From: a virus
Lineage: Duplodnaviria; Heunggongvirae; Uroviricota; Caudoviricetes
DNA length: 64,000 nt
Virus record (IMG/VR): IMGVR_UViG_3300008114_000011
Strand: one strand, 5' to 3'
The position numbers and the translations under genes were made by a program. This document shows, in pieces, positions 12,507-12,672 of this stretch. The number at the start of each line of letters is the position of its first letter. Position 1 is the stretch's first letter. The notes under the pieces are model-generated. The model worked only from the letters and a program-made list of their open reading frames with translations, was not told the origin of the DNA and did not search any database.

Positions 12507-12672
12507 AGTCAGGTGGCGGAATATTAACATCCCCGTTCTAGTTGTAAAAATAATGTGGTTAGAATCCACTACGGGGACAATGTTAATTTGGTAGACGCAC
12601 GAGAAGTACAATCGACAAGGCGGCCCTATAAACGGGAACGAGTGTGTACAGGTTCGAGTCCTGTTCTGACTT
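12507..12672 (+). tRNA. tRNA-like gene (paralog of 11867..11960) interrupted in the D-loop
   Basis: Same acceptor (AGTCAGG/TCTGACT), GGCGGAAT...TTGGTAGACGC D arm and ACAGG-TTCGAGT-CCTGT T arm as the first tRNA, but 65 extra nt sit inside the D-loop. Confidence 0.6.
12523..12587 (+). other. 65-nt structured insertion in the tRNA D-loop
   Basis: Terminal inverted repeat ATTAACATCCCCGT / ACGGGG(aca)ATGTTAAT. Inner minihelix TCCCCGT...TGTGG-TTAGAAT-CCACT-ACGGGGA resembles an acceptor plus T-arm. Confidence 0.6.

Follow-up and report, generated by a model that had tools for sequence, protein, structure and literature searches.

A tRNA-Leu-like phage RNA element without an anticodon arm carries a conserved and portable 65-nt module in its D loop

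What is a 65-nt structured segment that lies within the D loop of a tRNA-shaped gene in a phage? This question is raised by the element at 12507..12672 (here termed element C) in the stretch of Caudoviricetes DNA that we analyzed (IMG/VR virus record IMGVR_UViG_3300008114_000011; 64,000 nt, hereafter the window). The first-pass annotation had taken element C for a tRNA gene with the same acceptor stem, D-arm halves, and T arm as a nearby 'tRNA-like gene' (element A), and had offered three readings of the insert, these being an intron, a miniature mobile element, or a nested tRNA-like minihelix.

Comparing elements C and A base for base, we could confirm that they share the acceptor stem, the Leu-type D arm, and the T arm. 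Here, AGTCAGG-TG-GCGGAAT is identical at 16 of 16 positions and the T arm (ACAGGTTCGAGTCCTGT) at 17 of 17, while the D-arm 3' half TGGTAGACG and the acceptor 3' strand YCTGACT are common to both. The 65-nt separation also proved correct, as GGCGGAAT stops at 12522 and TTGGTAGACGC begins at 12588, and thus the insert comprises exactly 12523..12587 and is placed between U16 and U17 of the D loop. Moreover, the ends of the insert do pair as the inverted repeats originally described (ATTAAC/GTTAAT and TCCCCGT/ACGGGGA), with a CAAT internal loop on the 3' side. The inner T-loop-like hairpin was found as well (GTGG-TTAGAAT-CCAC), though its stem has 4 bp (GTGG/CCAC) rather than the 5 bp first drawn. 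The parts of element C and the neighboring tRNA-like elements are listed in Table 1.

Table 1. Positions of the tRNA-like elements in the window and of the parts of element C.
Feature	Position	Strand	Remarks
Sibling element A	11867..11960	+	Same frame as C, different cassette, A73, without D-loop insert
tRNA-like element without D arm, between A and B	12045..12118	+	GGGCGGA...TCTGTCC, T arm GTGAG-TTCAAAT-CTCAA
Sibling element B	12126..12215	+	Acceptor AGTCAGA, Gln-type D arm; Rfam tRNA 40.3 bits
C: acceptor-stem 5' strand AGTCAGG	12507..12513	+	Partner 12665..12671, one G-U pair
C: U8 G9, D-stem 5' strand GCG, D-loop G13 A14 A15 U16	12514..12522	+	
C: module outer stem, 5' strand ATTAAC	12523..12528	+	Alignment A1, helix 1
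C: 5' side (A, 1 nt) of 1x4 internal loop	12529	+	
C: module inner 7-bp stem, 5' strand TCCCCGT, acceptor-like	12530..12536	+	Helix 2
C: conserved joining region UC-[UA-GUUG-UA]-AAAAUAAU	12537..12554	+	2-bp mini-stem around GNNG
C: T-arm-like hairpin GTGG-TTAGAAT-CCAC	12555..12569	+	
C: unpaired U, inner stem 3' strand ACGGGGA, internal loop CAAU	12570..12581	+	
C: module outer stem, 3' strand GTTAAT	12582..12587	+	
C: remaining D loop (U17 U17a G18 G19 U20 A20a G20b A21) and D-stem 3' strand CGC	12588..12598	+	
C: cassette ('core') replacing anticodon and variable arms, last base U48	12599..12647	+	Without 5-bp/7-nt anticodon arm
C: T arm ACAGG-TTCGAGT-CCTGT	12648..12664	+	
C: acceptor 3' strand TCTGACT and discriminator U73	12665..12672	+	U atypical; A in 87% of family

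Among the canonical tRNA features, element C has the 7-bp acceptor stem, a D arm with G18G19, and a T arm with a TPsiC-type loop, and the acceptor and T arm are both present in its minimum-energy fold. However, an anticodon arm (5-bp stem, 7-nt loop, U33, and purine 37), which we sought with ARAGORN and Rfam, is absent. Likewise, the Rfam tRNA model gave no match to element C even at E <= 10, and ARAGORN with default settings called none of the elements A, B, and C. Because it has no anticodon arm, element C is not a decoding tRNA, and the premise of a tRNA gene had to be given up; rather, it belongs among hundreds of anticodon-less tRNA-Leu-like scaffold RNAs in phages. As for element A, its tRNA-like label holds to the extent that the Rfam tRNA model recognizes it (35.2 bits), though only because the model skips the anticodon region. 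Element B folds with an elongated arm whose end is TCAGA-TACTGAT-TCTGA. No terminator was found between these elements and the flanking same-strand ORFs.

The family is defined by a frame that consists of an AGUCAGG-type acceptor helix, a Leu-type D arm, the T arm ACAGG-UUCGARU-CCUGU, and N73-C74, together with a cassette that is not an anticodon arm. Element C fits this definition, departing only in a G7-U66 wobble and in U73. Family members are spread over more than 200 IMG/VR and metagenome contigs, mostly from freshwater, with at least 120 IMG/VR contigs per exact-pattern scan of the frame among the matches listed. Our survey yielded 164 to 319 distinct elements of 63 to ~300 nt, with up to seven per locus. 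Conservation extends to the acceptor, the D and T arms, A15-U48, and, in most members, A73, although the near-invariance of the frame is in part a matter of ascertainment, as exact patterns were used for the scans. Thus, the acceptor 7-mer AGTCAGG is found in 210 of 319 framed elements, A15-U48 in 88% of the elements, and A73, C74, and U-1 in 87%, 97%, and 79% of the framed ones. Alternative acceptors covary (e.g., AGCAAGG/CCTTGCT); here, we took acceptor covariation from elements selected only through the module pattern, since counts for the acceptor and T stems from the framed set are circular (pairing being the selection criterion) and were not used as evidence. The two tRNA halves that flank the D-loop insert, whose conservation in relatives the first-pass annotation had proposed to check, are kept across the whole family. 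Moreover, the sequences flanking framed elements match those of 484 canonical tRNAs from the same contigs. ARAGORN called 52 of 244 elements, and the 'anticodons' that it assigned were scattered.

In cellular genomes the frame is rare, being found in 20 of 185,579 species genomes, all 20 of them metagenome-assembled contigs and mostly of Bacteroidota, so that the frame is phage-borne rather than a host tRNA. We found no description of the family in Rfam 15 or the searchable literature. Rfam searches of the window and 17 related loci (at gathering thresholds), and of 11700..12800 at E <= 10, returned only tRNA matches for the frames, and 11500..13200 had no DNA similarity match among 50,697 deposited phage genomes. 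No exact copy of the 31-nt 3' frame occurs in cultured phages, with its nearest matches (87% identical) being in huge uncultured phages, a crAss-like phage, and Tenacibaculum phages. One of the latter, pT24, has other odd 'tRNA-Undet' genes that do not show this frame. Judging from a T9SS sorting domain, the nearest protein matches, and the titles of the metagenome-assembled genomes, the phage hosts are probably Bacteroidota. Clustering of the neighboring genes in ~200 loci gave no conserved RNA-related partner (the top cluster was the terminase large subunit), and genes for RNA-binding or RNA-processing proteins are not a consistent part of the neighborhood. HAD_SAK homologs were present in only six loci, and no tRNA-like element lies within 3 kb of the closest HAD_SAK relatives (53 to 66% identity).

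The D arm of the frame is identical to that of Escherichia coli tRNA-Leu(CAG). The requirements of E. coli LeuRS are A73, A15-U48, G18G19, A20a, and the D/T-loop contacts, and tRNA-Leu variants without the anticodon and variable arms remain chargeable (PMC9976931). Since the frame of most members holds this full feature set, leucylation of most of the family is possible. Element C has A15 (12521), U48 (12647), G18G19 (12590-91), A20a (12593), and the T-loop TTCGAGT, but its discriminator is U (12672) instead of the A73 that is retained in element A, and by E. coli rules this should prevent its leucylation. In addition, the 65-nt insertion in the D-loop alpha region may disturb recognition by LeuRS. 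What the family frame conserves is also what was kept in the minimalist tRNA-Leu substrates of E. coli LeuRS (Larkin et al., 2002), which, as described in PMC9976931, have the acceptor, D arm, T arm, A73, A15-U48, G18G19, and A20a in the absence of anticodon and variable arms. Those substrates are laboratory constructs, whereas in the phage family the missing arms are filled by diverse natural cassettes, and element C has U73.

Throughout the family, a structured and hypervariable cassette stands in for the anticodon and variable arms. The 156 cassettes compared fell into 128 clusters, among which we found no common motif, and they are modestly more structured than shuffled sequence (mean z = -0.8); some could be unconstrained filler. 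Shuffling is seen as well. Loci L230 and L240 are 100% identical to element C over 93 to 95 nt and then diverge, and in the pairs L214/L235 and L213/L232 the flanks, frame, and module are alike while the cassettes differ. The cassette of L214 is found again, this time without the module, in L014 and L060, where its stem shows compensatory changes. As for the cassette of element C, a scan of IMG/VR gave zero matches, and the only homolog found is in L248, a 99% identical strain in which the whole element is identical. A search for antisense targets of the A, B, and C cassettes in the window and 1.6 Mb of loci returned only chance matches of 11 to 15 nt.

The D-loop segment of element C is conserved across other contexts. 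It folds on its own at -18.1 kcal/mol, as against -10.2 +/- 2.7 for shuffled sequences (z = -2.9, 3/200). An outer stem, an inner one of 7 bp, a mini-stem of 2 bp, and the T-loop-like hairpin make up its architecture. The window copy scores 95.4 bits (E = 3e-26) with R1, a covariance model built from 25 copies, although it is part of the seed and so matches by construction; the copies in L095 and L189 have the same score. In all, the module is found in ~55 contigs (13 viral ones from IMG/VR and 42 from metagenomes) and in 34 distinct contexts. The proposed structure is 91.9% paired, which drops to 34 to 46% when the partners are slid, and nine pairs have changes on both sides, with none of 500 shuffles matching the observed values. 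Part of the invariance of the module is imposed by the scan patterns. Here, both-side changes occur in six of the eight pairs of helix 1 (the outer stem), helix 2 (the inner stem) is 98% paired and switches between A-U and U-A at its first pair, and the T-arm-like hairpin has a G-C to A-U exchange in L212 and L247. In the mini-stem, 15 rows have U-A at columns 19-26 and another nine have C-G, without exception; the scan pattern had left Y and R free. The loop sequence UUAGA corresponds to the U1...A5 pattern of T-loops.

Nested copies of the module occupy the same D-loop site, and combine with at least six different acceptors and at least 20 (about 21) cassette types. Free-standing copies exist as well, including those of L198, L211, and L245, which sit at a fixed position inside 25-gene tRNA arrays, with tRNA-Ile on one side and tRNA-Trp on the other at distances of 2 to 5 nt. 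Such copies keep the outer stem, which covaries and extends up to 13 bp. The module is a conserved, portable, and autonomous RNA domain that is separate from its host frame. Unrelated hairpins were noticed at the same D-loop site in L174, L086, L030, L070, L137, L084, and L263. By eye, the one in L174 looked like a diverged module copy, but the covariance model did not detect it at E <= 1 and it is only architecturally similar.

Starting from this anatomy, conservation, covariation, modular distribution, and the tRNA-like flanks, the reading that we favor, and hold to be more probable than not, is that element C is a non-decoding, tRNA-Leu-derived scaffold RNA with two payload domains, the frame of which serves for processing and stability. 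The frame (7-bp acceptor, U8, Leu-type D arm with G18G19 and A20a, A15-U48, T arm, and N73-C74) would fold as the tRNA L-shape, and through the frame the RNA would be released from a polycistronic transcript by the host tRNA machinery, with RNase P acting at the 5' end and tRNA 3' processing and CCA addition at the 3' end, and the RNA would be stabilized. A first port, at the position of the anticodon and variable arms, would hold the cassette. The second would lie at D-loop position 16/17, which in tRNA is solvent-exposed and variable in length. In element C this position carries the module, an extended and irregular hairpin whose cap is a closed minihelix of acceptor/T-arm type. The module, itself also a stand-alone gene, would have been recombined with many cassettes by way of the identical frame sequences. 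It is expected to be retained, unspliced, in the mature RNA, where a protein or a second RNA would probably bind to its surface.

In an alternative that we find unlikely, the nested minihelix is a processing signal. According to this, RNase P and the tRNA 3' enzymes would cut at the inner 7-bp stem, thereby freeing a ~48-nt minihelix and leaving behind a split, two-piece tRNA-like RNA whose acceptor, D, and outer stems would keep it together. An acceptor/T-arm unit is the minimal RNase P substrate, and the inner 7-bp stem with its 4-bp T-like stem and T-like loop does resemble one. In fact, a generic tRNA-like scan selects 12530..12577 as an 'acceptor + T arm' unit, and the module also forms a gene in tRNA arrays. 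Yet the covarying outer stem that the free-standing copies conserve would be pointless if trimmed away, the stacked helix, at 11 bp, falls one pair short of 12 and has its two stems separated by an unpaired U, and the 3' side (NAAU) offers no obvious 3' processing context.

The shuffling of cassettes could also mean that the frames serve mainly at the DNA level, as conserved recombination linkers for cassette exchange between co-infecting phages, with the likeness to tRNA being a relic. Wholesale cassette replacement at orthologous loci with identical frame and flanks, as well as the identical frames within and between unrelated contigs, would be in keeping with this. However, the retention of G18G19, the T-loop, A15-U48 (88%), and tRNA-type flanks, along with compensatory substitutions in the acceptor and T stems, speaks for selection on the RNA, and we consider a mainly DNA-level role to be distinctly unlikely. 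Recombination through the frames, for its part, is compatible with the scaffold explanation and forms part of it.

Even less can be said for a miniature (MITE-like or palindromic) mobile element that targets tRNA-like D-loop DNA, one of the three original readings and to us a very improbable one. The same sequence does occur in many genomic contexts, both nested and free-standing, and has inverted-repeat ends. Nonetheless, it is present once per contig, including the 64-kb window, and a search for further copies in the window and 1.6 Mb of loci gave just chance matches of 11 to 15 nt. Its ends lack conservation and covary (ATTAAC/GTTAAT, GTTAAC/GTTAAC, GTTTAAAC/GTTTAAAC, and ATACGAA/TTCGTAT), there is no target-site duplication, and the interior single-stranded sequence is better conserved than the ends. 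Moreover, recombination in the identical frame, as seen in L230 and L240, accounts for the shuffling.

Splicing out of the segment to restore a normal D loop seems more remote still, despite the fact that D-loop introns are known in archaeal tRNAs and that precise loss of 12523..12587 would give the uninterrupted D loop of element A (GGAAT-TTGGTAGA). Group I introns of bacterial and phage tRNAs have a P3-P9 catalytic core, measure at least ~200 nt, and are usually in the anticodon loop. The 65-nt segment is far too small for this and gave no match to RF00028 at E <= 10, whereas the same method detected a genuine group I intron in L011. Archaeal splicing relies on a bulge-helix-bulge, that is, two 3-nt bulges around a 4-bp helix at the exon-intron junctions. 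None is found in element C, as a pair between the junction bases 12523 and 12587 starts a continuous, covarying 6-bp helix that is also present in the free-standing copies, where there is nothing to splice. To our knowledge, the archaeal tRNA splicing endonuclease is absent from bacteria, and the hosts are probably Bacteroidota. A spliced product would, besides, still lack an anticodon arm. With ARAGORN in intron mode and at relaxed thresholds, elements A, B, and C received intron-containing calls (Tyr, Phe, and Thr), but these low-threshold calls are mutually inconsistent, put the intron at a different place from one element to the next, and disregard the register of the D arm, and so we regard them as forced. 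The weakest proposal, a decaying tRNA-Leu pseudogene with a chance hairpin, could draw on the absent anticodon arm, the missing ARAGORN call, and the discriminator U in place of A, but is hardly credible with a frame under purifying selection across hundreds of elements, a module conserved with compensatory changes in ~55 contigs, an identical element in the 99% identical strain, and cassettes that are replaced rather than eroded. Of what was first offered for the insert, only the nested tRNA-like minihelix survives, and both its D-loop position and its T-loop-like anatomy had been read correctly.

If the scaffold reading is true, phage tRNA regions would contain a large class of modular structured RNAs on a tRNA-Leu body, to which many tRNA-like genes that are missed or labeled 'undetermined' would belong instead of being pseudogenes, and the annotation of phage tRNA clusters would need changing. 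The tRNA fold would be a natural chassis for expression and stability with two insertion ports, and for the one at D-loop position 16/17 we know of no use in engineered scaffolds. Additionally, the 65-nt module and the conserved cassettes would be candidates for new RNA-protein or RNA-RNA recognition motifs, while the kept leucine identity set would raise the question of whether, and for what purpose, anticodon-less RNAs are charged during infection. Members are numerous enough to permit proper covariation statistics and structure determination. As a further and tentative step, which we think more doubtful than the scaffold itself, freshwater phages, probably of Bacteroidota, may maintain a combinatorial library of anticodon-less and perhaps leucine-chargeable tRNA-Leu bodies that display hypervariable RNA 'warheads' and, as an option, the T-loop minihelix at the D loop. 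Such RNAs would be effectors that serve as decoys, sponges, or inhibitors directed at host tRNA-directed defenses or other host factors. Were this so, the cassette swaps at orthologous loci would be the trace of an arms race, and the family would represent a new class of phage non-coding effectors, in which nature would have a widespread equivalent of the engineered tRNA scaffold.

Several known RNAs resemble the family in part. Like its members, the species 1 and 2 RNAs of phage T4 (rnaC and rnaD) are small stable RNAs of unknown function that adjoin tRNA genes inside a phage tRNA cluster. Here, rnaC terminates in a T arm of canonical form (CCGGG-TTCGAAT-CCCGG) and, after it, an acceptor-like strand, and hence is also a tRNA-framed non-tRNA. 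However, rnaC and rnaD are single genes that form no hypervariable multi-copy family and have neither a Leu-type D arm nor a nested D-loop module, and in an informal comparison we saw no sequence similarity to the family. The archaeal non-canonical tRNA introns, which can also interrupt a tRNA-shaped gene within its D loop, are comparable to the case of element C in this respect, but the latter has no bulge-helix-bulge, a probably bacterial host, and an insert that is a conserved folded domain also found outside tRNA-like genes. In the tRNA-like/miRNA chimeras of the gammaherpesvirus MHV68, a tRNA body reportedly acts as the carrier of foreign RNA. The same holds for the engineered 'tRNA scaffold' of Ponchon and Dardel, in which a tRNA body provides processing and nuclease resistance for a foreign RNA placed at the anticodon-arm position (PMC3753655, PMC3401473). 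Nevertheless, the one is from a eukaryotic virus and the other a laboratory design, and neither has the D loop as a second insertion port.

The nested minihelix of element C has a further parallel in the bacterial Y RNA YrlA, where a closed tRNA-like module (acceptor-like stem, T arm, and D arm) lies inside a larger RNA, though the termini of YrlA form a Ro60-binding stem and its gene is linked to rsr/rtcB (PMC4201824). The Rfam Y RNA models did not match the elements, and no Ro-like gene was found among the window ORFs scanned. Finally, tmRNA is similar to the family in having a tRNA-like domain (acceptor and T arm, with a reduced D region), a large functional insertion in place of the anticodon arm, and tRNA-like processing and charging. 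In contrast, the elements have no G3-U70 (3-70 is U-A in element C), tag reading frame, or series of pseudoknots, RF00023 gave no match in 11700..12800, and the family cassettes are much shorter and not conserved. Some of the phage loci with members of the family encode tmRNAs, too.

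Element A, the sibling of element C that lacks the insert, is identical to it in the 5' 16 nt, the 3' half of the D arm, and the T arm. The insert of C pairs at its ends (ATTAAC/GTTAAT, next TCCCCGT/ACGGGGA), contains a GTGG-TTAGAAT-CCAC hairpin, and folds more stably than shuffled sequence (z = -2.9). In the predicted minimum-energy fold of the whole of C, the acceptor stem, T arm, and insert hairpin are all kept side by side. To this extent, the first-pass annotation, which had described the frame shared with A, the 65-nt insert, its paired ends, and the hairpin, matches the sequence, but its premise of a tRNA gene does not hold. 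The single tRNA that ARAGORN called in the 64-kb window is at 26015; A, C, and a second sibling, B, went uncalled, and a 5-bp/7-nt anticodon arm is absent from all three. Moreover, the Rfam tRNA model matched A (35 bits) and B (40 bits) only with the anticodon region skipped, and C went unreported even at E <= 10. The check that had been proposed, ARAGORN with introns, gave at relaxed thresholds only mutually inconsistent Tyr, Phe, and Thr calls for these elements. The host gene of the insert is not a tRNA, and C also fails the defining tests for a group I intron, a bulge-helix-bulge intron, a MITE, a tmRNA, and a Y RNA. An identical copy of C is found in a 99% identical strain (L248).

The frame (acceptor stem, Leu-type D arm, and T arm) recurs widely. 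Exact scans of IMG/VR returned at least 120 stretches with the 3' frame (GGTTCGARTCCTNTYCTGACT) and at least 120 with the 5' frame (AGTCAGGTGGCGGAAT). The fetched loci hold at least 164 distinct elements with a C-type acceptor, ranging continuously from 53 to about 190 nt (four entries of 258 to 360 nt are adjacent elements merged in pairs by the script), and at least 319, up to seven per locus, with any acceptor beside the Leu-type D arm; these counts are lower bounds. Family and module members were gathered by exact patterns, which makes the invariance of patterned positions a matter of construction. Ordinary tRNAs are interspersed with the framed elements, and tmRNA, GOLLD RNA, or a group I intron lies near them at some loci. 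ARAGORN called 52 of 244 family elements, with scattered anticodons. Among 185,579 species representatives, the frame occurs in 20, all metagenome-assembled contigs (mostly Chitinophagia, Sediminibacterium, Flavobacterium, and Saprospirales, sampled in freshwater projects), and in no isolate genome; the exact frame was not found in any deposited phage. Neither Rfam 15 nor the searchable literature yielded a match to, or description of, the family.

The D arm of the frame has the same sequence as E. coli tRNA-Leu(CAG) at positions 6-25. Across the family, A73 (87%), C74 (97%), U-1 (79%), U48 (91%), and the A15-U48 pair (88%) prevail, though the discriminator of C itself is an atypical U73. The N73-C74 and U-1 flanks agree with those of 484 canonical tRNAs on the same contigs, which argues for maturation of the elements by the same machinery as tRNAs. 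E. coli LeuRS requires A73, the A15-U48 pair, G18G19, A20a, and D/T-loop contacts, and still charges tRNA-Leu when the anticodon and variable arms are deleted (2023 review, PMC9976931). Set against these requirements, the conserved features suggest that only the minimal leucine-acceptor set has been retained in the family and the remainder dropped.

The insert of C is a conserved module. A blastn match at 95% identity occurs in L095, again within a D loop, in an element that shares the frame but has an unrelated cassette, the cassette being the structured segment that replaces the anticodon and variable arms. Scans with module parts found it in at least 13 viral and at least 42 metagenome contigs; of the 34 distinct contexts, most place it between GGCGRAAU and (C)UUGGUAGACGC. 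The acceptors of its frames are AGTCAGG, AGTTAGG, GGTCAGG, AGCAAGG, GGCAAGG, or AGTCAGA, and the cassettes are of about 21 types. Two contigs (L230 and L240) match C at 100% identity for the first 93 to 95 nt, beyond which they bear no resemblance to it, the mark of recombination inside the frame they have in common. Across 25 aligned copies (24 distinct), 91.9% of cells pair in the proposed structure, versus 34 to 46% with the partners slid, and nine pairs have changes on both sides; none of 500 shuffles reached these values, although such controls ignore the relatedness of the sequences. The outer stem covaries freely, the 7-bp inner stem opens with a pair that changes from A-U to U-A, and the T-like stem shows one G-C to A-U change. 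A pair of the 2-bp mini-stem, whose Y and R positions were left free in the scan pattern, is U-A in 15 rows and C-G in nine, without exception. Most conserved are the single-stranded UC, GNNG, AAAAYAAU, UUAGAAU loop, and NAAU internal loop, an invariance partly imposed by the scan pattern. The module has no match in Rfam 15 and no description in the searchable literature.

The module also stands free, in six distinct contexts. In L198, L211, and L245, it fills a slot with tRNA-Ile(gat) on one side and tRNA-Trp(cca) on the other, each 2 to 5 nt away, within arrays of about 25 tRNA genes already covering all 20 amino acids. In L212 and L247, its outer stem extends to 13 bp and covaries (fold z = -5.3). 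The module is thus an RNA domain in its own right, and the outer stem belongs to the functional RNA rather than being a splice signal. Within the frame scans, 5 to 7 of about 105 Leu-type frames carry D-loop hairpins of 21 to 67 nt at the same position; further inserts occur in L084, L263, and L259, and all are predicted to fold as hairpins. Since the module covariance model matched only the window, L095, and L189 over 1.78 Mb, the remaining inserts are unrelated sequences; the D-loop site is a recurrent port, and the module a rare, single-copy accessory. Insertions are tolerated here because positions 16/17 fall within the length-variable, exposed alpha region of the tRNA D loop. The L259 element has, besides its insert, a nearly canonical anticodon-type arm (GGTGC-TTAAAAT-GCTCC), and elements nearer to real tRNAs may thus carry D-loop inserts too.

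The 156 distinct cassettes fell into 128 clusters, among which no shared motif was found, and are modestly structured (mean z = -0.8). Extra T-arm-like hairpins occur in 15 of 175, about ten times more often than in shuffled sequence (1.1 expected). Some types are kept between contigs with compensatory changes, as in L014 and L060, where a conserved loop is enclosed by the stem GTTGAA/TTCAAC in one contig and GAGCAA/TTGCTC in the other. Between orthologous loci (L214 and L235; L213 and L232), the cassette is swapped wholesale, with flanks and frame unchanged.

We consider it moderately likely that C is a tRNA-Leu-derived scaffold RNA. It would be processed like a tRNA, possibly CCA-tailed and charged, and would display a cassette where a tRNA has its anticodon arm and, from the D loop, the module as a second domain. 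That the module is instead a minihelix excised by RNases P and Z seems unlikely, given the conservation of the outer stem where the module stands free. A frame serving only as a DNA recombination linker is rather improbable, as the tertiary features of tRNA and the compensatory changes speak for selection at the RNA level. Of the options raised by the first-pass annotation, a miniature, transposon-like element is highly improbable for a single copy with variable ends and no target duplication. A spliced intron is more doubtful yet: there is neither a group I core nor a bulge-helix-bulge, the host is probably bacterial, and the module also occurs where splicing has nothing to act on. A pseudogene, contradicted by conservation and covariation, is scarcely credible. 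The nearest analogues of the scaffold RNA are T4 rnaC and rnaD (stable RNAs of obscure role within the T4 tRNA cluster), the minimalist tRNA-Leu constructs (PMC9976931), tmRNA, YrlA, and engineered tRNA scaffolds. T4 rnaC (species 1 RNA), a classical phage example of a tRNA-framed RNA without an assigned function, ends in the T arm CCGGG-TTCGAAT-CCCGG and then CGTTTCG, which can pair with the 5' CGATTCG at five of seven positions.

Coordinates of the features discussed (L numbers denote fetched loci; all others lie in the window)
Feature	Coordinates	Strand	Remarks
Element A	11867..11960		
Fourth tRNA-like element, no D arm	12045..12118	+	acceptor GGGCGGA/TCTGTCC, 7 bp, two G-U pairs
Element B	12126..12215	+	acceptor AGTCAGA/TCTGACT (family type), Gln-type D arm TCGTCTAATGGTAGGAC
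Element C	12507..12672	+	AGTCAGG-TG-GCGGAAT, 65-nt insert, TTGGTAGACGC, 49-nt cassette, ACAGG-TTCGAGT-CCTGT, TCTGACT-T
Insert of C, 65 nt	12523..12587	+	directly after GCGGAAT, before TTGGTAGACGC
HAD_SAK_2 protein, 159 aa	13063..13542	+	'Swiss Army Knife' RNA repair HAD domain, E = 1.7e-27
'tRNA-Leu(taa)' (ARAGORN)	26015..26084	+	70 nt, short variable region, non-Leu D arm
Tyrosine integrase and T9SS C-terminal sorting-domain protein	29970..30770; 56025..57749	+	two ORFs
NAD-related genes	47190..51462; 33173..33889	+	
NAD-related genes	62295..62906	-	
PolyA_pol head domain match	57715..58476	+	weak, sub-threshold, E = 8e-4
Intein/homing-endonuclease-like genes	46405..47193; 48863..49846; 53754..54587	+	domain matches
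Intein/homing-endonuclease-like genes	59137..61158	-	domain matches
tRNA-Leu-like element	L259 5694..5799	+	acceptor AGCCGGG, 24-nt D-loop hairpin insert
76-nt tRNA-like class	L036 9882..10047; L050 4463..4538; L073 4250..4325; L173 4520..4595	-	…TATCCCCTCAGCCTTATACGCCGTAGAAAGGGTAACTGGTAACAT + T arm
tRNA-framed RNAs, 156 to 175 nt	L115 836..991; L049 5303..5469; L067 12257..12431		other acceptors, shared conserved cassette (…GGGTTGACCACAAAGC…)
GOLLD RNA (283 bits) and tmRNA genes	L198 2233..2646, 1028..1383; L095 5724..6218; L011 7609..8193		
'tRNA-Undet' genes, Tenacibaculum phage pT24 (LC168164.1)	L177 3790..3868; 4157..4235		anticodon region GGGTATATTACCC
T4 rnaC	L252 1409..1547	-	

With a GC content of 28%, distant protein matches to 630 to 735-kb uncultured phages and Cellulophaga phages, and a T9SS sorting-domain protein, the window resembles the genome of a large Bacteroidota phage. 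The T9SS C-terminal sorting domain is specific to Bacteroidota secretion; it and the tyrosine integrase both help to infer the host and its phage's lifestyle. A to C run in the same direction as small ORFs, with no terminator-like site between, and the listed ORF 12555..12992 overlaps C only through the 'first start after a stop' rule. The HAD_SAK_2 gene lies about 400 nt downstream of C; just 6 of about 200 loci of the family have a homologue, and its linkage to framed elements is not general. The elongated arm of B ends in TCAGA-TACTGAT-TCTGA, whose loop is that of the E. coli tRNA-Gln(CUG) anticodon, UUCUGAU, apart from U33A; B resembles a tRNA-Gln whose anticodon stem has been lengthened. 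The fourth tRNA-like element, without homologues in the fetched loci, has a long arm (GTAAC...GTTAC) and the T arm GTGAG-TTCAAAT-CTCAA. The identity of the 'tRNA-Leu(taa)' is doubtful, with acceptor- and T-stem mismatches and an Rfam score of 30.3 bits against a threshold of 29.

Elsewhere in the window, the NAD-related genes (PRPP-synthetase-like, nicotinamide phosphoribosyltransferase, NUDIX hydrolase, and a microbial PARG-like domain) may serve to counter defences that deplete NAD. If the PolyA_pol match (CCA-adding enzyme/poly(A) polymerase family), unconfirmed by PHROGs, is genuine, a tRNA nucleotidyltransferase may be encoded by the phage itself. Two neighbouring ORFs have intein-splicing and LAGLIDADG domains, and there are several HNH, GIY-YIG, and NUMOD homing-endonuclease-like genes, which indicates a high selfish-element load.

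In the related phages, many structured RNAs are concentrated beside tRNA arrays, and the tmRNA match of L011 has a group I intron immediately next to it or overlapping it. A second odd class, of 76-nt tRNA-like genes on which ARAGORN made no call, has an anticodon-like hairpin directly after position 9, followed by a D-arm-like segment. The tRNA-framed RNAs of 156 to 175 nt form a further subfamily; the fourth element of the window contains GGGTTGACC, similar to their cassette sequence. Finally, the cultured jumbo phage pT24 carries two near-identical 'tRNA-Undet' genes with normal acceptor, D arm, and T arm and a non-canonical anticodon region, a possible tractable system for non-decoding tRNA-like genes.
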